The notes: generated by a model not told the origin, from the sequence alone. 64,000 nt of DNA from Ignavibacteriota bacterium (GCA_963776275.1 CAVZMI010000023.1:224001-288000); one strand, 5' to 3'. Shown: positions 1,419 to 44,474, counted from the first letter of the stretch. Numbers and translations: made by a program.

Positions 1419-1565
1419 GCATAATGTCCGCAGTAGCAACGCAGTGTCGCCGCGAACTCTGAACAATTCATTTCTCTGTGAGCGGCGGCATTGAGTGATC
1501 CCGACGACCTGTACGCCATTTCTTTAGCGGGAGTCGGGAGAGCGTCGTTGCTGCCGTTATTAGCC
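1419..1565 (-). repeat. attC-like recombination site 1 (variant AAT/ATT core)
   Basis: GCATAAT+GTCCGCAGTAGCAACG ... CGTTGCTGCCGTT+ATTAGCC; 16/13 geometry; inner stem CAGTGTCGCCGC/GCGGCGGCATTG. Confidence 0.75.
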
Positions 1566-1598
1566 GCCGGCTTTCGTCCCTCCACCGTTGGCTGACAA

Positions 1599-2530
1599 TT
1601 ACTTTTTAAAACTCGTTTTCAGCGCTCCGGTCGGACAGCTCTCAACGCAACGCTGACAGAGGATGCAATCGCCTTTGCCAATGCGTGTGCCCATTCTCAC
1701 ACGCTCAGCCACGGGAATGTCCATCGGACAGACTTCCGTGCACGCCTCGCATTCGTTGCACGCCTCGGCCTGGGCGGAGACATGGAGAAGCGCCGGGCGG
1801 CTCGTCCAACGCAGAATGAATCCGGTGGGACAAAGGTATTTGCAGAACGCGCGTTGGTCGTGCAGAGCCAGTGCCAGCGCAATAGCTGCCGCATAGTAAA
1901 CGGCAACGCCGGCAGCGACGGGCCAGATGCTGTTGCCGCGCATGTGTCCGTGGGCTCCGCCGGGCTGGGAGTCTAACACCAGCGCGAACAGAACTGCGGC
2001 CGCAAAACTGACGGCCACACCGACAAGCGGCGTCCAAACCCAAACACCCTTGCGCCGGCCCGAGCCCTTGCCGACGGGAAGACGCTCGAGCACCATCGCA
2101 CGCCAACACCCCCATCCACACAGAATTCGGCCAAAGATGAGCGGCCCGATGACGGTGGTCACCATCGTGTGACCGATAGCCGGGCCTACTGTTCCCAGGA
2201 TCAGGAGCTCGAAGAAGCCATCTATGTCGAGGTTGACGGCATCGACCAATGAGAACATGAGAATTCCCAATCCACCGGTGGCCAGGACGAGCCACCGCCA
2301 CCACTGTTTGCGGTCAGCGCGGGCAAAGGCGTAGCCGGCGAGAAATGGACCTTGGGAGAGCCCCGAACCGAAGAGAGCAAATTGCGAAACCCAATGTGTT
2401 TCCCCGGAACAGTACTACTGCAGCCAACGGCCAAAAGACGAGAAGGGAGATAGCGCTGACGACGAGCAACGCACGACTGACTCTACGGGGGGTCGTGCAC
2501 TCCCCGGTCACGGGATCCTCCGAGGATACG
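1599..2530 (-). CDS. 4Fe-4S binding membrane protein (NapH/MauN-like), frameshift near 2350; 5' end uncertain
   Basis: GRILCGWGC, FCKYLCP, CNECEACTEVCP and CILCQRCVESCP motifs; N-terminal TM part is in ORF 2314-2637. Confidence 0.75.
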
Positions 2531-2539
2531 CATACATTC

Positions 2540-2830
2540 GGATTCTTCTTCACCTGTAGAAATTTTATAAACATATAAATATACTTTATTACAATTGTTA
2601 AAACAACGATGTCCAAAATAATAATCGAACCAATCAAAAAAGATCACACCAATGATGCCAGATAATAACTCTCCTACAAAAACAAAAGCAATCAAAAACG
2701 ATTTATGAATTTCAACGATCCAACTGAGTACTGTGTGCCCACCTTGGATTGCTGTTTTCATTATTAAAAAGATTACGAATAAGAATTCGATAAATAGTAC
2801 TATTAAAAACGATTCTTTCAGTTTTGCACA
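2540..2830 (-). pseudogene. AT-rich small membrane protein, frameshifted or truncated
   Basis: Hydrophobic stretches split over ORFs 2483-2761 and 2314-2637 at an A-run near 2637-2641; abrupt GC shift near 2550. Confidence 0.4.
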
Positions 2831-3062
2831 TATCTTAATATGGTTGCGCCCTAACTATTGTTTATATGGTTTCCGCGTAAGACCACTGTATGTTCCATCG
2901 CAGCATTACACGCCACAGTCAGAATTTCCAAAAGCGCTAAGCCCAAACAAGTTATCGCCGCTCAGCTCACTGACAAGAGTGTTATGCGGTTTCGGCATAA
3001 CATGGCACGCCTTTCGTTCCTTCGTGCCGCAAAACGCCTTAAGAAAATGAATCTTTGCTTGC

Positions 3063-3226
3063 ACATAACGTCCGGCATGCCCACGCAGTACCGCCACGCC
3101 ATTTTGCAAATGAACAATTTCATATTTGCAGCGTGGCGGTATTGAGGGAGCACAATTTATTTTGCTTAATGAGTTTTTATTATCGTCTGACTAGTTGTGC
3201 GACCGTCGTGGGCACGCCTGTTATGC
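3063..3226 (-). repeat. attC-like recombination site 2
   Basis: ACATAAC+GTCCGGCATGCCCACG ... T+CGTGGGCACGCCT+GTTATGC; inner stem TACCGCCACGC/GCGTGGCGGTA. Confidence 0.9.
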
Positions 3227-3293
3227 GACGCGCAGCCGAACCACCAATTCGATCTCTTCGTGTAGATAGAAAAGTTGTAATTTTCTGTTGTCG

Positions 3294-3950
3294 TCACTGA
3301 GCCAGAGTATCGACCGTGACTGAAACAACTTTGCTCTTTTGGAACAGCTTAGTTTCTCGTATGGAACGACGAATTCTCTCGTCAAACCAAGTATTTTTCT
3401 CAGATATCTGAACTAGCTTGCCTTTCACGAACTGATAGCCGCATTCTGTACCACAACACGCACCAGATTGTTCCATTGTAGTCAACGTCCGTGTGGAACT
3501 ATCGGGTGTTAGTTCACTAAGTTTACTTAGCTCGTCATGGTAGAAGAATTTTTTTGTTTTCGGACTGAAAAGCCAAACATACGACCAACTCCCACCACTT
3601 CCATAATCGTATTCCAGCATCAGATCTAGATATCCATCGAAATTGAGATCCTTGGCTATGAATGCCCCTTCCCCAAAAGGATGGTATGTTTTGAAGTTTT
3701 TGAGGATTTGAAAAATTCCCGGTTTGTCTGACCGCTTGATTTCGATTCGTGATACCGAATGCACTGCCCCCGTCTCACTTGTATCTTCGTTAACGATGAA
3801 ATGCAATGTATATGGGGGTAGTGTAGAATGTATGGTAATGGTGTATTTGTAGTCGATTTCGTTGGGTTGACCACTTGTCAACCTATAGAAGCCTACCAAC
3901 AGGAACGCAATTCCAAGGATCATGAGTAATTTCAGTTTAGGAGTATTCAT
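3294..3950 (-). CDS. Cassette gene: exported hypothetical protein (XAC2610-like, DxNFDGYxD loop)
   Basis: 218 aa, N-terminal TM/signal, DLNFDGYLD Ca-binding-type motif; bounded by att sites. Confidence 0.75.
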   Translation of the reverse strand: MNTPKLKLLMILGIAFLLVGFYRLTSGQPNEIDYKYTITIHSTLPPYTLHFIVNEDTSETGAVHSVSRIEIKRSDKPGIFQILKNFKTYHPFGEGAFIAKDLNFDGYLDLMLEYDYGSGGSWSYVWLFSPKTKKFFYHDELSKLSELTPDSSTRTLTTMEQSGACCGTECGYQFVKGKLVQISEKNTWFDERIRRSIRETKLFQKSKVVSVTVDTLAQ

Positions 3951-4021
3951 TTCAATGAAAACCTTGAAGTATAGTTATACTATACATTGAAACCACCAAA
4001 CCTTTGGTGAGGCTGCGTGGC

Positions 4022-4139
4022 GCATAACGTCCGGCACAAAAATGACGTTGGGGCGCGAACTAATAATGACTAATTATTCTGTGAGCGACCCAATGTTTAT
4101 TCGGATTTCAAACTGCCAACATTTTTGTGCCTGTTAAGT
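4022..4139 (-). repeat. attC-like recombination site 3 (belongs to ORF-less cassette copy 1)
   Basis: GCATAAC+GTCCGGCACAAAAATG ... CATTTTTGTGCCT+GTTAAGT; identical to 6395-6512. Confidence 0.9.
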
Positions 4140-4219
4140 GCACGTGACCGCGGCACTTCACTATACTTCAGGACTTCAACTCGCGCCACTTCAAAGACTG
4201 CTAACGCCGCGGGCATTGC

Positions 4220-4328
4220 ACTTAACGTGTGCGGGCACTACGCAGTCCCGCTTGCCACTAAGAACAATTCAATTTTCTGTGGCAAGCGGGATTGAGTGTT
4301 CTTCACGTCGTAGTGCCCGCTGTTATGT
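4220..4328 (-). repeat. attC-like recombination site 4
   Basis: ACTTAAC+GTGTGCGGGCACTACG ... T+CGTAGTGCCCGCT+GTTATGT; inner stem TCCCGCTTGCCAC/GTGGCAAGCGGGA. Confidence 0.9.
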
Positions 4329-4340
4329 GCAGTTGCCCGT

Positions 4341-5817
4341 TCATCGTAATAAAATAAGTTTCTTTGTCTCAACAAAACCACCAGCTTCGAGTCTATAATA
4401 ATACACACCGCTTACAATACCTAATGGATTCCATTCTGTTGTATAAGTACCGGCACTCAAATCTTGCGACAAAAGCTGTACGACTTCCTGTCCTAATGTG
4501 TTGTAGATTCTTAATGAGACATGTACTTCTTTGGGGAGTGAGAATCGTATCGTTGTGGTCGGGTTAAAGGGATTTGGATAATTTTGCCAAAGGTCGAATG
4601 CAGTCGGAATATCTCCTTCAGGTTTAATACCTTCCACCCCAACATTTCCGTCAACATCCGTCTTAATTAGATATATCTGTAGACTGTCCCCGAAAGACCA
4701 GGTTTCACCAGTTATTATATAGCCACCGTCAGTAGTCTGCTGAACGGAGTGACCATAACCCGACTCATAGGTTTTTGTCCACAATGTATCCCCAGAAGAA
4801 TTGGTTTTAAATAGGTAAACATCATAATCGAGGGCATCGTAGGAACTCTGTCCCGTGATGATGTATCCACCGTCTGTTGTCTGCTGTATGGAGTTACCAT
4901 AAGAGTAACGTCTACCCTCATAGGTCCCCCCATATGTCCTTGTCCAAACGGTGTCCCCATTGTCATTAGTCTTGATTAGATAGACTGCAGTTCCAGAGAA
5001 TAAGTCCATATCCCCAACAACGATGTAGCCGCCATCAGTAGTTTGCTGAACGGACCGACCCCTTGAATGTGATGAGCCCGCCCCCTCGTAGGTCACTTGT
5101 CCAAAGTGTATCCCCGATTGTATTAGTTTTTATAAGGTAAATATAATCTTTGTAGGTAGCAAAATTTCTGATATATCCCTCAACGATGTAGCCCCCATCC
5201 ATGGTCTGCTTGATTTCGTTTCCCTCATCAGTATAATAAGTGAGCGTTCCCCCGTAGGTCCTGGTTCACAGTGTGTCCCCGGAGGAATTGGTTTTTATCA
5301 GGTAAACTTTGTAAGAACCCTTAGCCCCTGCAACGATGTATCCGCCGTCTGTAGTTTGCTGGACGGAACTACCAAATTCGTCGCCCGACCCCCCATAGGT
5401 TTTTGTCCACAGTGTGTCTCCGGAGAAATTGGTTTTAATTAGGTAAACCTGTATGCCACTACCGAAAGAGCCGGTACTTCCCGCAACAATGTAACCACCA
5501 TCCGTAGTTTGCTGAACGGAGTGCCCCCCATCATCACCCGCTCCTCCGTAGGTATTTGTCCAAAGTATATCCCCATTGGCGTTGGTCTTTACGAGGCAGA
5601 CATCGTAATTTCCTGCACCGAAGGAATTGGTCCTGCCCGCTACGATGTAGCCCCCATCAGTAGTCTGCTGGACGGATTGACCGTATTCTCTTCTAGTCCC
5701 CCCGTAAGTCCTTTCCCACCGCTGTTGAGAAACCGCAGGTTCGGCTAAGGTGAGGATCAGCAGGAAGAACAGGAGGGTAGAAAAGGTGAGCAAGTGAAGT
5801 TTGAAACGTAACTTCAT
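4341..5817 (-). CDS. Cassette gene: secreted beta-repeat protein with T9SS C-terminal sorting domain (two frameshifts near 5266 and 5096)
   Basis: Signal peptide; about 7 repeats of SVQQTTDGGYI.AG...YLIKTN.SGDTLWTKTYGG; C-terminal QNYPNPFNPTTTI...SGVYYYRL...TKKLILLR. Confidence 0.85.
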
Positions 5818-5949
5818 GGAAACCTCCTTATAATGATACTATTTGATAATGTTTCATAATCCAAGTATAGCATTTCATAGTACACCTCCACTAATTTTGC
5901 ACTCCTTTTCTTCCTATCGTCTGTAGGCAGATCTTGAAAGGGCAATTGC

Positions 5950-6097
5950 ACATAACGTCTGGGCCAACTACGCACCCCGACCGACCAACATTTTGTCAAT
6001 TGACGGGCGGGGGGAACGAACTCTATTTGTCGCGCCGAACTAGGCACCAACGTTGCCTTACCAAATGAAGTGAGTGTCGTAGTTGGCGCTGTTATGC
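5950..6097 (-). repeat. attC-like recombination site 5
   Basis: ACATAAC+GTCTGGGCCAACTACG ... T+CGTAGTTGGCGCT+GTTATGC. Confidence 0.9.
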
Positions 6098-6340
6098 GCT
6101 GGCGGCCGCCCCGCACCTGCGAATTATGACCTGCCTTGCTTTTTGACGCCTGTATGATCCCTTGCCACGGTGGGTATCGCACAGTCCCGCCCAAAACCTT
6201 TCGTATGACATGGGATGTTCATGCTTGGACCGCCAGTGCGCGTCAATTCCATCCCACCCGTGCCCTTGAAAAACGTGATTGCACTCTGGACAAATCCGAG
6301 GGCCGGTCTTCGGTACCATTTTTTCGCAACATCTGCACAT
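6092..6340 (-). CDS. Cassette gene: small Cys/His-rich (Zn-finger-like) protein
   Basis: CRCC, CPEC, H...H, C..H; RBS-like GGAGG upstream; fills a 0.3-kb cassette; stop TAA lies in the core site. Confidence 0.65.
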   Translation of the reverse strand: MCRCCEKMVPKTGPRICPECNHVFQGHGWDGIDAHWRSKHEHPMSYERFWAGLCDTHRGKGSYRRQKARQVIIRRCGAAASA

Positions 6341-6394
6341 GTTATACTAACCTCCGTCTGTTTTGTCTGGTAATTATTCGGGGCGGCCGCTTGT

Positions 6395-6512
6395 GCATAA
6401 CGTCCGGCACAAAAATGACGTTGGGGCGCGAACTAATAATGACTAATTATTCTGTGAGCGACCCAATGTTTATTCGGATTTCAAACTGCCAACATTTTTG
6501 TGCCTGTTAAGT
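6395..6512 (-). repeat. attC-like recombination site 6 (ORF-less cassette copy 2)
   Basis: Identical to 4022-4139. Confidence 0.9.
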
Positions 6513-6592
6513 GCACGTGACCGCGGCACTTCACTATACTTCAGGACTTCAACTCGCGCCACTTCAAAGACTGCTAACGCCGCGGGCATTGC

Positions 6593-6726
6593 ACTTAACG
6601 TGTCGGCAAACACCGCCGTGCCGTTTGGCGTATATTAATGATTCAATTTTCCTCACGCCAAACGGCATGGAACGACCACCATAATCCTTCCCAATAAAGG
6701 GAGTGCCGGTGTTTGCCGTGTTAGGC
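6593..6726 (-). repeat. attC-like recombination site 7
   Basis: ACTTAAC+GTGTCGGCAAACACCG ... C+CGGTGTTTGCCGT+GTTAGGC; inner stem CCGTGCCGTTTGGCG/CGCCAAACGGCATGG. Confidence 0.9.
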
Positions 6727-6754
6727 GAAGTTGTTTTGCATTTGCGGAAAACGC

Positions 6755-7252
6755 TTAATGTTTCACAAGGGACTTACGAATGCGGTTATTGATCCCTTGC
6801 AGTGTATCTGTTTCAATTTGATGTTCCCAATAGCGAAGAACTTTCCATTTACACTTTCTCAGGATTCGAGTTTGTCGGACATCTCGCCTTCTGTTGTCGA
6901 GAATTTTTTCCTTCCACCAGAGCGTATGTGAGTTAGGAACCTTAAAATGAATGGGACAGCCGTGCCAAAAGCATCCATCAAGGAAGAGGCACACTTTATC
7001 CTTTGGAAACACAATATCCGCTTTTATCTTCAGCAGGGGCTCGGGTCTTACATTTGTACGAAATCTTAATCCAGCTTTTTTAAGGAAGATACGTAACCTT
7101 TGTTCCTGTTTGGTCTCGTGTCCTGTATTGCTTTGCATTACACGATGTACAAGGGGAGATGATGCACTAGGCGCACGAGATCGAATTGACTGTCTTGGCC
7201 GAGAGGCCTTTCTTCTATTGGTTGGTTTGGCTGTCCGTACTGACACTGTCAA
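6755..7252 (-). CDS. vsr: Very-short-patch repair endonuclease
   Basis: MQSN...TKQE, ADIVF, FLDGCFWHGCP, WKVLRYWEH motifs. Confidence 0.92.
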   Translation of the reverse strand: MTVSVRTAKPTNRRKASRPRQSIRSRAPSASSPLVHRVMQSNTGHETKQEQRLRIFLKKAGLRFRTNVRPEPLLKIKADIVFPKDKVCLFLDGCFWHGCPIHFKVPNSHTLWWKEKILDNRRRDVRQTRILRKCKWKVLRYWEHQIETDTLQGINNRIRKSLVKH

Positions 7253-8256
7253 ATTATTTTTGAGTCTGATGATCGTTTGTATTCTGCTTTTTCCTCACCG
7301 ACACTGATGTGAAAGGCATTTTCCGTCATACTAAAGCTAATTGGAGGTAATTCGTCGGGTGTCGCCTCAAGAGCCTGCTGCATCGGGGCTTTGACATATT
7401 TTTCCAAAAAGACGGTCATCACCTCACCAGCGGCTTTTTCGAGGTGCCGCCAAGCTTCATCTCCGACAAATGTAGTGCCACCAGCATCCTTGAATGCAGC
7501 AACCAATTCAGTGAGTTTCGGGTTTGGTGTTGGATCAAGAACGATGAGAACGGGTTTGTATCCACTTTGTTTGCAGTCTGTTGGAAAATCAACTTCTTCC
7601 TGCCAGCGACCTTGTCCCGATGCAGCGATGGTAACTCGAATCTTGATCTCGTATGCTAACTTATCTCGGATGCAATCAACTTGACGCCCTTTCGAGCCAT
7701 CATCGTGTCGTTTGATTGGACTTGCCTTAGCGCTAAAGGAAGCACCTCCGATTGCATTGGCGATTATTGGTTCGAAAAGGTAGCCAGTTTCTTGTCCAGC
7801 TCTATTGTCGATATCGAACAGCCACTTTCTCCATAGGAGGAACCCAGCTAGAGCTTGAGGGCTCATTTGCCCATACTGCAGGAGCGTCCGTGGACCTACT
7901 TGATCCATGGTTGGAACAGCTTGGTATTCAAGTATCCGAGCGTATTTCAGCCTGCTTTTTTGCAGGGTTGCCAAACAAGAGAAGTATGTATCAGCGTCCG
8001 GGATCAGTTTGAAAAGGCGTTCAATAAGCATGTAAAAGTCTAACTTAGTGAGTTCAAGCTTACGGGGATCGGCCTCGTCGAAGAATTCTGGAAAGCTTAT
8101 TTTAACCTCAGGAAACTTCTTAAGGATTTTCAAATCACGAACGATCGTTGCGACGAGGAAGGCACAAGCTTCATCTGAAAGGCCTGTGCCTAATTCACCG
8201 CCGCCAGCCGCCCTTGCCTTTTCAACGAGCGACTTCTGAGATTGTGTTATTGCCAT
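7249..8256 (-). CDS. Putative type II restriction endonuclease (PD-(D/E)XK-like)
   Basis: Lies between a C5-MTase and Vsr with overlapping stop/start codons; GYLFE...QVDC...YEIK catalytic-like pattern. Confidence 0.75.
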   Translation of the reverse strand: MAITQSQKSLVEKARAAGGGELGTGLSDEACAFLVATIVRDLKILKKFPEVKISFPEFFDEADPRKLELTKLDFYMLIERLFKLIPDADTYFSCLATLQKSRLKYARILEYQAVPTMDQVGPRTLLQYGQMSPQALAGFLLWRKWLFDIDNRAGQETGYLFEPIIANAIGGASFSAKASPIKRHDDGSKGRQVDCIRDKLAYEIKIRVTIAASGQGRWQEEVDFPTDCKQSGYKPVLIVLDPTPNPKLTELVAAFKDAGGTTFVGDEAWRHLEKAAGEVMTVFLEKYVKAPMQQALEATPDELPPISFSMTENAFHISVGEEKAEYKRSSDSKII

Positions 8257-9491
8257 AAAGCTATTTGCTCCAGTCCGATTTCTATGCGAGTAGTGGGAAA
8301 CCTACGTCTAATGCGGTATGTAATATCTTCAAGTACAGGACTCTTTCCGCTTGAGACTGTAGGAACAAAAGACAGTAATGCTCCATTCTTAAAAGACTGA
8401 ATGTTTGAAACTTTTTCAAGATCAAGTTGTAGATTGAGAGCAATTACTTCAGCAAGACGTGGTGGAACAGCATTCCCAATTTGTAGGATACATTCAGTGG
8501 TATTTCCAATAAAGATGAAGTCATCAGGGAAACTTTGAATGCGAGCACACTCGCGAAGTGTTAAGGTTCGATCATCAATAGGATGGATGAATTCTGATGT
8601 GGCACCACTCGTAATTGCCTTCGACGGTTGATCGTCTCTCAACCGTCTCAGTCCTGCGGGAGCTCCACCTCTTCGTTCTGTTGGGGTTCCGTCCATTACT
8701 CTTCTAAACGCTCTGCGTCGATAACTCTCATGCCATAACTCAGTAGGTAGGTCTTTCATCGTCTGACCTGGTTTCAGAAGGCGGACACGTTCAATGTCCT
8801 GCTCGGATAGTGGACGATAATAATGGCCATCTGGAAAACCGGGTGGCAACAGAGTAGGACGTGGTAAACCCCTAAGTGCATCGGCTAGCGTCGGACACGG
8901 AGGGAGATGCTTGAAGGCCTTTGATGCCCCAGGAGCTCCGTAAGCCGAATAAGTCGGTTCTGGGAACCGAGGAGACCATCCCAAGCCGCCAATTGCTATT
9001 ACTCGCTTGCGATGCTGAGGAACTCCGAAGTTTGCAGCGTTTATTTTTCGAAGATGGATCTGATAGCCTACGTCAACCAATGGTTCAAGTAGATCGAACA
9101 CTCTATTCCCATTATCTGCAGTTAGAAAACCCTCGACGTTCTCGAAGACAAATGCTTTTGGTTTGTGTTGGACAACTAGTTCTGAAAAAACTCTGACAAG
9201 TGTGTTTCTATGGTCATCTGAACGACGCATTCCCGCTGAGGAGAATCCCTGACAAGGTGGCCCTCCTATAATCACATCCGTGGATGGAATAATAGTTGAT
9301 TCGGTTATATTATCTGTCAGGATATGGTCTTCAAAGTTCCTTCTGTATGTCCTCGTTGCTGATTCATTGGAATCTATAGCAACAACGCAAGTAAATCCCG
9401 CCTTTTGAAAACCAAGCGAGAGCCCACCAGCACCGCAGAACAAGTCTGCGTAGGTCATATTGTTATTATGTCCTTGGTCTATTTCCAACAT
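8247..9491 (-). CDS. dcm: DNA (cytosine-5)-methyltransferase
   Basis: DLFCGAGG, GGPPCQGFS, ENV, PQHRKR, RECARIQSFPD, QIGNAVPP motifs. Confidence 0.96.
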   Translation of the reverse strand: MLEIDQGHNNNMTYADLFCGAGGLSLGFQKAGFTCVVAIDSNESATRTYRRNFEDHILTDNITESTIIPSTDVIIGGPPCQGFSSAGMRRSDDHRNTLVRVFSELVVQHKPKAFVFENVEGFLTADNGNRVFDLLEPLVDVGYQIHLRKINAANFGVPQHRKRVIAIGGLGWSPRFPEPTYSAYGAPGASKAFKHLPPCPTLADALRGLPRPTLLPPGFPDGHYYRPLSEQDIERVRLLKPGQTMKDLPTELWHESYRRRAFRRVMDGTPTERRGGAPAGLRRLRDDQPSKAITSGATSEFIHPIDDRTLTLRECARIQSFPDDFIFIGNTTECILQIGNAVPPRLAEVIALNLQLDLEKVSNIQSFKNGALLSFVPTVSSGKSPVLEDITYRIRRRFPTTRIEIGLEQIALWQ

Positions 9492-9568
9492 ATTGGTACT
9501 TCTTTACCCGTATTCGTTGCATGAAACATAATAAAAACTTATCAAAAGTCATAATGCAAAACAATTTC

Positions 9569-9701
9569 GCCTAACGTCTCGCCCAACAACGCAGCGCTTT
9601 TGCGAACTATAAATGGACCAATTCATTTGTGAAGCAAAAGCGTTGAGCGACAACAACTATACTCTATCAAAGATGGAGCGTCGTTGTTGGGCGTGTTATG
9701 C
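9569..9701 (-). repeat. attC-like recombination site 8
   Basis: GCCTAAC+GTCTCGCCCAACAACG ... T+CGTTGTTGGGCGT+GTTATGC; inner stem CAGCGCTTTTGC/GCAAAAGCGTTG. Confidence 0.9.
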
Positions 9702-9964
9702 GAAGCGCCCAAAGTCGCCTATTGGATACCACACGAAGCTAACGGTGTTACAAATAACGGGTGCCCCAACACAAGAATGCCGATCAAGAGTACAACATCA
9801 ATAATTTTATTACGTCCAGTTGATTTGCTGGATATACACATTTTACAAATTAATTTAGCTCCTTAGAGGTGTTAAAAATTTATTTTGTTATTATAACCCT
9901 TATTATTTTGGACAAATTATATTTGCATCTCTGCTTTGTTTATGTCATTCTTAAAAACTAAACT

Positions 9965-10390
9965 TTATGGACCTACATAACCACAACTGGAACAAATCTG
10001 TACCCCAGTAAGTCCAGCTTTTGGACCGTAGCCAGATGCACCGCAGCGCGGGCATTTTGGCCTAGAGGCAGTTACAATAGCCCAACAAGCTGGGCACACG
10101 GCCAAAAATGGTTTTCCATCTAATGTGGTATACGGTTCTGTCAATGCTGGGTGACCGATTTCGCCTTCAACTTGTCCACGATTAGAAGCGGGTACGAATG
10201 TGAATCGGCCAGTAGGTTTTCGACCACAAAAATTGCACGTATCATATTGAGGTTTAGAATTATTGTTCTTCGGATAATCTATCATATCTTCATGTTTCTT
10301 CTCTGATGCAAAGGTACCACGACCGCATCTAGGACATTTAATTAATCCATTTGGTACCTTCTCTCCACAGATGGCACATATTTTTTCCAT
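9965..10390 (-). CDS. Cassette gene: multi zinc-ribbon hypothetical protein
   Basis: Six CxxC motifs (CAIC, CPRC, CNFC, CPAC, CPRC, CSSC); likely start ATG at 10390. Confidence 0.7.
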   Translation of the reverse strand: MEKICAICGEKVPNGLIKCPRCGRGTFASEKKHEDMIDYPKNNNSKPQYDTCNFCGRKPTGRFTFVPASNRGQVEGEIGHPALTEPYTTLDGKPFLAVCPACWAIVTASRPKCPRCGASGYGPKAGLTGVQICSSCGYVGP

Positions 10391-10611
10391 ATGATTTATC
10401 GCCTTCTTAGTTTTTTTAGTATATACTTTGTATATATAAATATTGATTATATGGTTTCCATATAATACGCCTTCGCCATTGCCCTTCGGCATAACACGTC
10501 TCTGCTGTTTGCTCGTCAGGTTCCTTGTTTTTCCGGTTCTTGTATTAATAATAGTATAAATGGGTAACGATTCTATTGATATAGTCAGTCCTTTCTATCT
10601 TTGGGCGTTTC

Positions 10612-10728
10612 GCATAACGTACTGCGGCAACACGCCGTGCCGCCATTCCATGAAACATGAAATGACGGCGGCATGGAGCGAGCACCTTGAATATGAAACG
10701 GCGAGCGTCGTGTTGCCGCATGTTAGTT
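10612..10728 (-). repeat. attC-like recombination site 9
   Basis: GCATAAC+GTACTGCGGCAACACG ... T+CGTGTTGCCGCAT+GTTAGTT. Confidence 0.9.
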
Positions 10729-10994: not shown

Positions 10995-11369
10995 TCAGTC
11001 GGTGCATAGATTTATTGTCGGGAGCATAAATTGTCCTACAAAGAATTTATTGTCAATCGTTACAATCGCATTGTAGTATGAGCCGATCCCAAGGAATCCG
11101 CTATTGTAGGTCACCATCAGTTCGACGCTGTGGCCGCTATAAGTTCCAGTTGCATTGATCCCTTTCCAATCAAAAACAGGGACCGATTTAGTTATTACGG
11201 TTGAATCATTGACTATTACCTTGATAGCTGGATATAGTCCCGATTTCTCAACTCTGACCTGCCAAGTCTCACTAGTTGCACACGGCGATTGATATGTTGC
11301 GAACTTCGATGAGTAGCAGCCCGCGATTAGAAAACCGAATAGTAAAAAGAACGGTAACTTTCTCTTCAT
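10995..11369 (-). CDS. Cassette gene (first in array): hypothetical lipoprotein
   Basis: MKRK + hydrophobic segment + LIAGC lipobox. Confidence 0.75.
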   Translation of the reverse strand: MKRKLPFFLLFGFLIAGCYSSKFATYQSPCATSETWQVRVEKSGLYPAIKVIVNDSTVITKSVPVFDWKGINATGTYSGHSVELMVTYNSGFLGIGSYYNAIVTIDNKFFVGQFMLPTINLCTD

Positions 11370-11627
11370 ATTCTGCCTTTTTCTGTCTGATTTACTCCGA
11401 GACCGGAACTGCGGCTAAAGATGACCTTGACTGACACCTTTGGAACAGCTTGGTCATCGGCGCCATGGTAAGCAACGGTCGCCACGGAGATACCAACTCG
11501 TCTCTTCATTGATTGCCCTTGATAAAAATCCTCCACGAATTTATCAGGTCTCATGTTAAGTGTTCCAGCATTGCCGCGCGCCAACAAGTCGCAACCACTC
11601 TTTTAATAACTTTCTGGCGGCGCTTGC

Positions 11628-11662
11628 AACTAACATTTGCAACAACGCTATATAGCGTTGTT
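11628..11662 (-). other. attI-like primary recombination site overlapping the 3' end of the recombinase
   Basis: Lone core AACTAAC that completes the first cassette's terminal repeat, then 6 nt, then perfect 22-bp palindrome AACAACGCTATATAGCGTTGTT; no full attC partner arm. Confidence 0.7.
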
Positions 11663-12583
11663 CTCTTTTTTATCTGTGTCAGGAAGATAAATCTTTCTAT
11701 CTTTTTCTTCCTTCGGTAGCTCTTCTATCATTGAGTCGAGCGGACTTTTAATCTTCCCGATCGTACGAGTACTTATATGCGTGTAAATTTCTGTCGTTTT
11801 AATACTGCCATGCCCTAATAACTCTTGAATGTACCGTATATCCGTTCCATGTTCCAATAGAGCTGTCGCAAATGAATGCCGGAGTGTATGCATAGAAACC
11901 GTCTTGCGGATACTGGCTGATTTCACTGCACGTTCAATGACTTCCTGGATGCTCCGTTCTGATAAATGTCGTCCCGGTTTTGCACCGGGAAAAAGCCATC
12001 CGACTTCAGTAATCCTATATAATTGTACATAAGCATGGAGAGCACTCAGTACCGCTCTTGAAAGAATTGTGTATCGATCCTTTTTATGCTTTCCTTCTCG
12101 TACATGAATAACCATCCTTACCACATCAAGATCTTCGGTTCGCAAACGAACAACCTCGCCCACGCGTAATCCGCTTCCATAGGCGATCATCAACATTACT
12201 TTATGTTTTAGATTATCAATTTCTCTGAATATTCTTAGAACCTCTCCCTGATTCAGTACATCAGGGAGTCTTTTCTCCTTCATCGGCCGAGGTATTGAAT
12301 CGATCTTAAAAGGCATTCCATATAAATCGACATACAGTAATCGTAGAGCGTTAAAAACCTGGTTAATGCTCGATGCCTGGAATTGACGCTCCTCGATCAA
12401 GTAAAGCAGGTACGAGTGAATATCGTCCTCTGTCACATCGCGCGGGTGCCGCGGTCGAAAATAACTCACAAAGGAATGAAGCCAGCTAATATACGATTTG
12501 ATCGTCTTCGAACTATAGTTTTTCAGGCGCATCTCGCGCCGAACTGTCTCGAAAAACCCCGGCTTACTTTGTAACTTCTCCAT
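11648..12583 (-). CDS. Integron-integrase-like tyrosine recombinase lacking the IntI insertion
   Basis: N-terminal MRLKNYS.KTIKSY...RHP SAM-like domain; catalytic GLRVGE, GKHKKDR, HTLRHSFA, LGH, EIYTH; only ~20 aa between DRYTIL and WLFP. Confidence 0.92.
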   Translation of the reverse strand: MEKLQSKPGFFETVRREMRLKNYSSKTIKSYISWLHSFVSYFRPRHPRDVTEDDIHSYLLYLIEERQFQASSINQVFNALRLLYVDLYGMPFKIDSIPRPMKEKRLPDVLNQGEVLRIFREIDNLKHKVMLMIAYGSGLRVGEVVRLRTEDLDVVRMVIHVREGKHKKDRYTILSRAVLSALHAYVQLYRITEVGWLFPGAKPGRHLSERSIQEVIERAVKSASIRKTVSMHTLRHSFATALLEHGTDIRYIQELLGHGSIKTTEIYTHISTRTIGKIKSPLDSMIEELPKEEKDRKIYLPDTDKKENNAI

Positions 12584-38918: not shown

Positions 38919-40343
<1,425 letters not shown>

Positions 40344-40400: not shown

Positions 40401-40614
40401 CTCTCATCTTCCCTCGGCTTTGATAGTTTAAATCAAAGTCTTAGCAGGAGTTAGCACCTGGACGTCTCGGGCTTTTATCGGATGAGTGCCCCTCGATCCC
40501 TCCGTCCCGACTTTCAATCAGAACGGGGTCGGATTCGGGACAATCCCTCGTGGAGCTCGGGATCGGTTGCTAAGGTGTCATCGGGCCTGTTCCCTCGACC
40601 TTTCTTGATAAGAG
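40401..40614 (-). ncRNA. SAM-I riboswitch with long P3 insertion
   Basis: Minus strand CTCTTATCAAGAAAGGTCGAGGGAACAGGCCCGATGACACCTTAGCAACC...GGTGCTAACTCC...GGGAAGATGAGAG upstream of metY. Confidence 0.92.
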
Positions 40615-44403: not shown

Positions 44404-44474
44404 GCGGGGTTAGTTGATTGGTTCAACGCGAGCTTCCCAAGCTTGAAAAACGGGTTCGATTCCCGTACCCCGCT
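44404..44474 (+). tRNA. tRNA-Gly(CCC)
   Basis: Acceptor GCGGGGT/ACCCCGC, anticodon arm CGAGC-TTCCCAA-GCTTG, T-loop GTTCGATTC; D-arm slightly atypical. Confidence 0.85.

Follow-up and report, generated by a model that had tools for sequence, protein, structure and literature searches.

Can gene cassettes be gathered into an integron-like array by a recombinase that does not have the domain on which integron recombination is thought to depend? This question is raised by a locus of an Ignavibacteriota bacterium of the order Ignavibacteriales (GCA_963776275.1, contig CAVZMI010000023.1, positions 224001-288000; a stretch of 64,000 nucleotides, referred to below as the window), in which nine palindromic repeats between positions 1419 and 10728 lie downstream of the gene of a tyrosine recombinase, P0001. 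It is assumed in the field that the I2 insertion, also called the additional domain, enables the integron integrase IntI to recombine folded, single-stranded attC sites. According to PMC4792948 and PMC7790495, I2 accommodates the extrahelical bases of attC and blocks the exchange of the second strand (here and below, statements on published work refer to excerpts of the papers cited). The joint presence of I2 and extrahelical bases has been described as a co-evolution with a chicken-egg problem (Escudero et al. 2016, PMC4792948); the deletion of I2 kills IntI1, with causality lacking direct proof and no ancestor sequence being available (PMC7790495).

Our analysis supports, with good confidence, that the nine repeats are equivalents of attC and belong to a chromosomal integron-like element of the Ignavibacteriales, where they would serve for the recombination of its cassettes by a mechanism that we infer. 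They would follow a variant attC code that co-varies with the loss or absence of I2, inside a system that is otherwise integron-like. Both partners of the presumed co-evolution, I2 and the extrahelical bases, are missing together in an abundant natural system, and the remaining integron logic is intact.

Layout and fold of the nine sites

A geometry scan of the window detected nine sites, all on the + strand and all with one fixed layout, in which RYYYAAC and 4 nt precede a first 12-nt arm; 60-115 nt of inner part separate this arm from its 12-nt complement, after which come a single base and GTTRRRY. The invariant arm geometry claimed in an earlier note, made from the sequence alone, was in this way found again in every site (AAC + 4 nt + 12, then 12 + 1 + GTT, with AAT in site 1). 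From left to right, and with their scores in the covariance model R1 described below, they are site 1 (1423-1561, with AAC..GTT at 1423-1558/1561; 85.8 bits), site 2 (3067-3222; AAC GTCC and a 12-bp first helix with 11/12 pairs; 93.6 bits), site 3 (4026-4135; part of a short duplicated cassette; 82.8 bits), site 4 (4224-4324; 104.9 bits), site 5 (5954-6093; 75.9 bits), site 6 (6399-6508; identical to site 3; 79.8 bits), site 7 (6597-6722; 119.2 bits), site 8 (9573-9697; 134.4 bits) and site 9 (10616-10724; the attC of the first cassette after the attI-like site; 90.7 bits). The scores, from 75.9 to 134.4 bits on the + strand, correspond to E values of 3e-16 to 4e-30. Since sites 3 and 6 lie within a duplicated 213-bp stretch and are identical, there are eight distinct sites among the nine.

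The 4 nt that follow AAC are GTCC, GTCT, GTGT or GTAC in the window, and the single base before GTT is T in eight of the nine sites, site 1 having C or T there, depending on whether the GTT or the ATT register is read. The two arms, whose helix is called H1, pair at 12/12 positions in six sites and at 11/12 in three. The AAC/GTT triplets are kept in 8/9 sites, giving the imperfect palindrome RYYYAAC...GTTRRRY that is typical of attC. Across 21 sources with such arrays, about 54 sites showed this (4,1) geometry, each of them reappearing as (1,4) on the opposite strand; a single mononucleotide-shuffled version of these sources contained 28 hits in all, scattered over all 81 geometries.

Site 1, the most distal of the window, has an AAT...ATT core and a degraded H1. 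Model R1 aligned it in the AAT...ATT register, where H1 consists of nine Watson-Crick pairs, two G·T pairs and one mismatch. The double change from AAC/GTT to AAT/ATT that the earlier note had pointed out is present, but its reading as a selected compensatory change was rejected, since only this one site, distal and decaying, shows it, and the adjoining distal sites are changed on one side only. A scan free of the triplet requirement gave 126 hits, 107 of them with AAC/GTT, the remaining 19 including chance matches elsewhere in the genome; one triplet was altered in seven, and no second AAT/ATT was found.

The fold was studied in an alignment (A2) of 31 sites of 119-131 nt, of which 24 belong to nine related genomes and seven to the genome of the window, two of these (sites 7 and 8) lying in the window itself and five on other contigs; model R1 was built on these 31 sites, only two of them thus being from the window. 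RNAalifold, run unguided, predicted four paired elements, namely the R box, H1, H2 and H3. Standard pairs occupied 94.8% of the 1023 cells (31 sites, 33 pairs) vs 69.0% in shuffled alignments, none of the 500 shuffles reaching as high a value, and changes on both sides of the pair, that is compensatory ones, were detected in 27 of the 33 pairs (253 cells). When the partners were displaced by 1-3 columns as a control, the paired fraction was at most 54%.

The R box has five pairs, T-A, A-T, A-T, C-G and G·T (TAACG with TGTTA), in such a way that the G of the GT following AAC pairs with the T that precedes GTT, and a bulge of 3 nt (TCY or TGY) remains on the AAC arm, to which the unpaired bases near the core are confined. 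H1 is an uninterrupted helix, of 11-12 bp in RNAalifold, with no extrahelical base; 96.8% of its cells were paired and no register shift was seen among the 31 sites, and at least 11 of its 12 pairs were in register in 52 of 61 candidate sites. H2, a 12-bp hairpin, comes directly after H1, at offset 0 in 54/61 candidates. H3 is a third covarying helix with a tandem G·A motif (G·A in 29/31 sites, A·G in 18/31). H1, H2 and H3 meet in a three-way junction, two branches above H1 being the commonest minimum-energy outcome (36/61 candidates). The covarying 12-bp stems and the second hairpin directly after the left arm, both proposed in the earlier note, were therefore recovered by the structural alignment, and what it had called a variable unpaired segment proved to be closed by H3.

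The tandem G·A motif of H3 reads GCGA...GAGC (A2 columns 101-106/131-136). A similar pair, GCGAAC...GTGAGC, was recognized by eye at the distal end of H2 in many sites (A2 columns 40-46/75-80), and the GCGA-type motif of both helices could be a repeated recognition element.

Regarding the strand that folds, an A·C cell in such an alignment is a G·T pair on the opposite strand. The helices of the 31 sites hold 64 G·T cells vs 8 A·C cells, the fold of the + strand was the more stable in 46 of 57 sites, with a mean advantage of 1.52 kcal/mol, and R1 gave at most 21.8 bits on the - strand of the window. All the cassette genes lie on the - strand, so that the folding + strand is the bottom strand, as in canonical integrons, for which a folding bias towards the bottom strand has been described (PMC5027507). 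The better folding of the bottom strand that is expected from attC is consequently found here.

Two other traits of attC are not. In canonical sites each arm has an unpaired spacer of 5-6 nt, and extrahelical bases are located at positions 16, 20 and 23/24 (Nivina 2016, PMC5027507), which agrees with the 5/6-nt spacers quoted in the earlier note. The sites described here lack extrahelical bases on the bottom-strand arm that faces AAC, and their spacers are of 4 vs 1 nt, or reduced to the 3-nt bulge when the G·T pair is counted. The idea that canonical attC are largely unbranched, also put forward in the earlier note, is restricted to mobile integrons; of chromosomal attC it is stated that they "can form complex branched structures" (PMC5027507), and branching alone is therefore no new code.

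Cassette array, attI-like site and point of exchange

Read on the - strand, the locus consists of the recombinase gene, an attI-like site and then at least ten cassettes, each one closed by one site. In seven of the eight junctions, 7-10 nt at the right flank of one site recur as their reverse complement at the left flank of the following site; in the other junction this extends over GTTAT only. Within one and the same site only TAACG/TGTTA pair, which is the chimeric-site signature of integron arrays, and the cassette bodies are bordered by chimeric R boxes of about 10 bp. The array goes on leftward of the window, with sites at positions 220524, 221928 and 222827 of the contig.

The attI-like site (11621-11662, + strand; 12.2 bits) contains TTGCAACTAAC at 11621-11634, just past the recombinase stop, a sequence that is complementary to the right flank of site 9, GTTAGTTGCA, in the same manner as the cassette junctions are to each other. 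Its AAC is followed by ATTT and then by a palindrome of 22 bp (11641-11662), overlapping the recombinase stop. Among 21 loci of relatives examined, about half had the stop codon, a short palindrome, NCANAT and GTTRRRY within the printed sequence; several others reached a contig edge or had no palindrome beside the stop codon.

In order to locate the exchange, duplicated and rearranged units are informative. The duplicated unit comprises, on the + strand, a site and the body lying to the right of it; on the gene strand this means a body followed by its site. The window and another contig of the genome (C22) have the recombinase and the first cassette in common, and diverge exactly at TAAC. Within a set of 126 unique sites from the genome and its relatives, in which pairs are not independent, sites that agree in H1 and inner part and differ in the left flank shared the 4 nt after AAC in 18 of 22 pairs, whereas those with the same left flank and different H1 shared them in 26 of 142 pairs (0.21 expected by chance), a large contrast. 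The 4 nt therefore travel with their own site, which sets the exchange point at or to the left of the C of AAC. This is in agreement with the canonical cleavage at AA|C stated in PMC4792948, from which we infer the position of the cleavage to the base. A crossover after the 4 nt, considered in view of the duplicated cassette being followed by GTGT in both copies, is contradicted by the same counts. The locus thus shows the three features by which an integron is recognized, namely a chimeric cassette array, a crossover at the conserved triplet and an attI beside the recombinase gene.

The second recombinase copy on contig C22 (9512-10753; loci L002, L005 and L008) is 98% identical over residues 1-268 and is then broken, and the later cassettes differ. 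It could be due to strain heterogeneity in the assembly (contamination 5.3%) or be a second locus.

Recombinase and its pairing with the type of site

P0001 is a 311-aa tyrosine recombinase encoded at 11648-12583 on the - strand, co-directional with the cassettes, with Phage_integrase and SAM-like domains. Its best NCBIfam model is TIGR02249 (integron integrase), matched in two pieces, its score of 237.7 bits falling short of the cut-off (265) and profile positions ~181-230 being left unmatched; the XerC and XerD models gave 178.8 bits (cut-off 335) and 178.1 bits (cut-off 330), so that P0001 reaches neither. In the five genomes tested from outside the order, the relatives of P0001 match this model in two pieces likewise. 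Among solved relatives, the best is VchIntIA (Protein Data Bank (PDB) ID 2a3v; E 1.5e-44), to whose chain residues 5-178 and 240-318 P0001 aligns with residues 10-183 and 205-283, in such a way that residues 184-204 of P0001 stand opposite residues 179-239 of the chain. The catalytic motifs GLRVGE, GKHKKDR, HTLRHSFAT and LGH...EIYTH align residue for residue with VchIntIA, and all the catalytic residues of tyrosine recombinases (R, K, H-x-x-R, H/W, Y) are there. Between fixed anchors, seven short forms have 21-23 residues (23 in P0001), six canonical IntI have 62 and two Xer have 28-30. Judged by these alignments, P0001 is without the I2 or additional domain, the insertion of about 40 residues of IntI, which is what the earlier note had meant by an insertion-less recombinase. 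The genome also has separate Xer-like genes, at 34-36% identity.

The question of whether the type of site follows the type of enzyme was addressed in a survey of 61 Ignavibacteriales genomes. Full-length IntI (profile positions 1-315, 409-486 bits) was found in 21 of them and the short recombinase in 24, with both types present in seven (G002, G003, G010, G031, G037, G046 and G051); no full-length IntI was detected in the genome of the window, whose completeness is 96.4%. Fold-based scans beside full-length IntI gave six attC sites in four genomes, an exact search for 7-mer stems near canonical IntI having given almost nothing. On the bottom strand, this canonical attC of the order reads YCTAAC GGACT (6 bp)(4-6 bp) ... 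(..) G (6 bp) TG GTTAGGC. Its spacer is 5/2, and six bp in an extrahelical G stands on the arm that faces AAC, in line with published descriptions of attC; a GCGGCT/AGCCGC box is conserved. The sites of the window have one base fewer per arm and no extrahelical base. The direction of the asymmetry is common to both types, with more unpaired bases on the AAC arm (GGACT/TG vs GTCY/T), and an inverted asymmetry with respect to canonical attC was rejected on this ground. In L129 (G057), the only canonical locus with its orientation worked out, IntI is divergent from the array, whereas the recombinase of the window is co-directional with it.

Model R1 gave 68 hits in the loci of the short recombinase of at least 4 kb, with hits in all 12 of them and all 68 on the strand opposite the recombinase gene; four shorter loci, ending at contig edges, gave no R1 hit. 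In contrast, 12 loci of canonical IntI (167 kb) gave no hit at E ≤0.001 and a single one at E 0.04, the canonical sites being left unmatched by R1, and a crude scan for the canonical motif over 288 kb of loci of the short type gave six candidates, none of them with the canonical layout. At the level of whole genomes, R1 sites were detected in 41 of the 61; among the 24 that have the short recombinase, 22 contained them (307 hits). The coexistence of this system with canonical integrons in the same order, and sometimes in the same genome, provides matched enzymes and sites.

With respect to canonical integrons such as VchIntIA/VCR (Vibrio cholerae repeats) and IntI1/attCaadA7, the element has in common one palindromic site per cassette, AAC/GTT triplets, chimeric R boxes, a crossover at AAC of the bottom strand, a bottom-strand bias with G·T pairs and an attI beside the recombinase gene. 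It differs in the stretch of ~22 residues of P0001 vs 62, in the absence of extrahelical bases, in the 4/1 spacer vs 5-6 nt per arm, in an H1 fixed at 12 bp and in a terminal three-way junction that is conserved and not variable. The system is integron-like in logic and fails two defining tests, the I2 domain and the extrahelical bases. The earlier note had spoken of a different structural code read by an insertion-less recombinase. This stands insofar as the code differs both from published attC and from those of the order, with the two types paired with their enzymes locus by locus, and does not stand in the sense of a wholly different system, as core, bottom-strand folding, direction of the asymmetry, chimeric R boxes and crossover are all canonical. 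The recombinase would presumably read this structure.

In the mechanism that we propose, one monomer of the recombinase would bind the R box and another one the proximal part of H1, across the bulge. The bottom strand would be cleaved at AA|C and a single strand exchanged with attI or with another attC, the resulting junction being resolved through replication, as in canonical integrons. The choice of strand and the block of the second exchange could be due to the bulge together with those G·T and G·A pairs that would form only in the bottom strand, roles that in canonical integrons are played by the extrahelical bases and I2. The system bears on the questions of how the strand is chosen without I2, how the second exchange is blocked without it, and which of the two partners came first.

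Alternative readings, origin and cargo

Several data weigh against this interpretation. Of the 37 genomes in which no short recombinase was detected, 19 have R1 sites all the same (87 hits), and nine of these 19 are among the 13 genomes with canonical IntI only; such sites may represent integrase-less arrays or assembly gaps, or may be used in trans by a canonical IntI. Conversely, two genomes with the short recombinase (G013 and G051) showed no R1 site at E ≤1e-6. The canonical set used for comparison is small, the six sites in four genomes mentioned above, and counts across genomes of a single order overstate their independence, since these genomes are related. Part of the family is dead, as 14 of the 39 R1 hits examined in the genome of the window are decayed or hybrid. 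Regarding the crossover, in four pairs the 4 nt do not travel with their attC, and two discordant sites have 4 nt of the attI type (ATTT, ATCT), which a single fixed crossover does not explain. The sites with attI-type 4 nt, where GTNN is usual, are located at 10052-10148 of contig C32 of the same genome and at 10075-10213 of locus L032 (contig C2 of G002), and hint at an occasional exchange on the far side of the 4 nt.

These discordant cases bear on the possibility that the sites recombine as double-stranded DNA with exchange of both strands, like Xer at dif or at the pdif sites of Acinetobacter, the hairpins being a by-product of inverted binding sites. The four pairs and the two attI-type sites do resemble an exchange beyond a central region, I2 is missing in P0001 as it is in Xer, the arms of the R box reach 10-11 bp, like Xer arms, and even IntI1 is still capable of second-strand exchange on duplex attI (PMC4792948). 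Nevertheless, we consider such duplex recombination very improbable, because the covariation extends over 33 pairs, three helices and 100-150 nt, far past any binding site, because G·T and tandem G·A pairs show a strong preference for one strand (64 vs 8), which would be meaningless in duplex DNA, and because each array site has chimeric R boxes, whose pairing is limited to TAACG/TGTTA.

It could also be argued that these are ordinary attC, within the known diversity, served in trans by a canonical IntI with I2, and that the short recombinase is an unrelated enzyme of the Xer type. A genome with about 40 sites and no full-length IntI is hard to fit into this scheme, and so are the sites in fixed orientation in 12/12 short-recombinase loci, directly after an attI-like site that overlaps the stop codon, the other type of attC over the 167 kb around canonical IntI, with no R1 hit at E ≤0.001, and the presence in the genome of separate Xer-like genes at 34-36% identity. 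The R1-type sites in 9/13 genomes in which only canonical IntI was detected would be expected under service in trans, the AAC/GTT core, the bottom-strand bias and the crossover position are canonical, and complete integrons have been reported in Ignavibacteriae in IntegronFinder papers (PMC9024848). On balance we regard this scheme as very unlikely.

Finally, although the repeats are intergenic, palindromic and abundant (~40 per genome), a nature unrelated to recombination, such as elements like repetitive extragenic palindromes (REP) or miniature inverted-repeat transposable elements (MITE), terminators or structured RNA, is extremely unlikely given that each gene unit has one site, always in the same orientation and downstream of a recombinase, and given the chimeric flanks between adjoining units with the same unit in different contexts, the favoured fold on the strand antisense to the cassette genes, and no Rfam family match in the region.

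We therefore return to the cassette recombination sites of an integron-like element, and compare it with other known systems. The single-stranded attP(+) of the CTX phage folds into a mimic of a duplex site with an imperfect central region, and is recombined by exchange of a single strand. This phage, one of the integrative mobile elements exploiting Xer (IMEX), is like the present system in using an enzyme of the Xer type without I2 on a folded single strand (PMC7790495). It is unlike it in depending on the host XerCD at dif, and in having no cassette array, dedicated recombinase or three-way junction. The IntI of Treponema would carry the additional domain, as IntegronFinder calls these integrons complete. 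In Treponema, intI is co-directional with the cassettes (PMC3607928), as here. Smyshlyaev et al. 2021 defined an "integron-like" subgroup of simple tyrosine recombinases in which the insertion "is not fully conserved", to which P0001 would belong; in the excerpts of that paper (PMC8138268), sites or arrays for insertion-less members are not described. Open-access papers and bioRxiv, taken without their supplements, yielded no published arrays tied to insertion-less relatives of IntI and no natural attC without extrahelical bases. Surveys that define integrons by the IntI-specific domain would miss these elements as complete ones, and the cassette reservoirs of Ignavibacteriales, and probably of other phyla, may accordingly be under-reported.

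The sites are not restricted to the window. R1 gave 40 matches at E ≤0.01 in this genome, and 25 of the 39 examined conform fully. The others kept the spacing, and had either decayed triplets (GAT, AGC, CAC) or H1 halves that are not complementary. The latter state was observed at C12:60152-60291, C32:6820-6964, C8:7736-7877, C18:202222-202361 and C12:49953-50063, five hits that look like hybrids of two sites or decayed remnants.

Outside the order, relatives of P0001 at 41-49% identity were found in Bacillota (including Paenibacillus), Spirochaetota, Bacteroidota, Chloroflexota, Gemmatimonadota, candidate phyla and one archaeon. Many of them are followed by AAC...stem...GTT sites with loop sizes that are specific of the lineage, arrays of such hairpins being seen beside short relatives in Bacillota, Spirochaetota, Bacteroidota, Chloroflexota and candidate phyla. 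Two loci of candidate phyla (L106 and L126) showed a divergent layout, in which site-like hits precede the short recombinase and share its strand, in contrast to the co-directional arrangement of Ignavibacteriales.

A quick IQ-TREE analysis of 79 proteins, with three long-branched Xer proteins from one genome as outgroup, grouped the 21 canonical IntI in one clade on a long branch (Shimodaira-Hasegawa-like approximate likelihood ratio test, SH-aLRT, of 100), with all 55 short forms outside and none nested within it. The short forms of Ignavibacteriales made one clade (96) on an unresolved backbone, and a tree in which all 55 short forms were constrained as one clade was not rejected (approximately unbiased test, p-AU 0.78). 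The Xer outgroups are likewise without the insertion, and in the tree rooted on them a single gain of I2 would be the most parsimonious history, a polarity limited by an outgroup of three proteins from one genome. Tentatively, and with the odds rather against it, the short recombinases and their arrays could form a sister lineage of integrons, spread across phyla, that keeps the state prior to I2. If this were true, folded single-strand attC and cassette arrays would predate the I2 domain and the extrahelical bases, and the "chicken-egg paradox" (PMC4792948) would have an answer, in that recombination of single-strand attC would not need I2.

As for the cargo, all on the - strand, cassette 1 has an open reading frame (ORF) of 124 aa without family match (10995-11369). 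That of cassette 2 (9965-10492; 175 aa) matched DZR with 30.6 bits, barely above the Pfam cut-off of 27.3, and three further ribbon families below theirs. A single cassette of 2.85 kb carries three genes (6755-9491), for a C5 cytosine methyltransferase, with a solid match of 228 bits, an ApaLI-like restriction endonuclease, with a weak one of 21.3 bits vs the Pfam cut-off of 25, and a Vsr-like mismatch endonuclease; if the weak ApaLI-like match holds, this would be a restriction-modification unit as a single cassette. Sites 4 and 5 enclose a pair of neighbouring ORFs (4341-5096 and 5266-5817, -) that fill 4341-5817, the first one ending in a sorting domain of the type IX secretion system (T9SS; Por_Secre_tail); the region looks internally repetitive by eye and may be one gene split by frameshifts. 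The duplicated cassette of ~200 bp (4018-4228 and 6391-6601), which has a diverged third copy at ~12941-13157 of contig C22, has no long ORF and holds one of 39 aa (4097-4216, -) that runs into its own site. Distal to site 1, an ORF of the ATC_hydrolase family (675-1322, -) belongs to the part of the array that runs on past the left edge of the window. Between this ORF and a partial one at the window start, GC-rich nested inverted repeats without R1 hit occupy 420-560.

Elsewhere in the window, an S-adenosylmethionine (SAM) riboswitch was detected at 40401-40614 on the - strand, upstream of a gene for a Cys/Met pyridoxal phosphate (PLP) enzyme (38919-40340), which is an ordinary feature, and five tRNA genes are located at 44404, 51769, 54547, 55452 and 55748.

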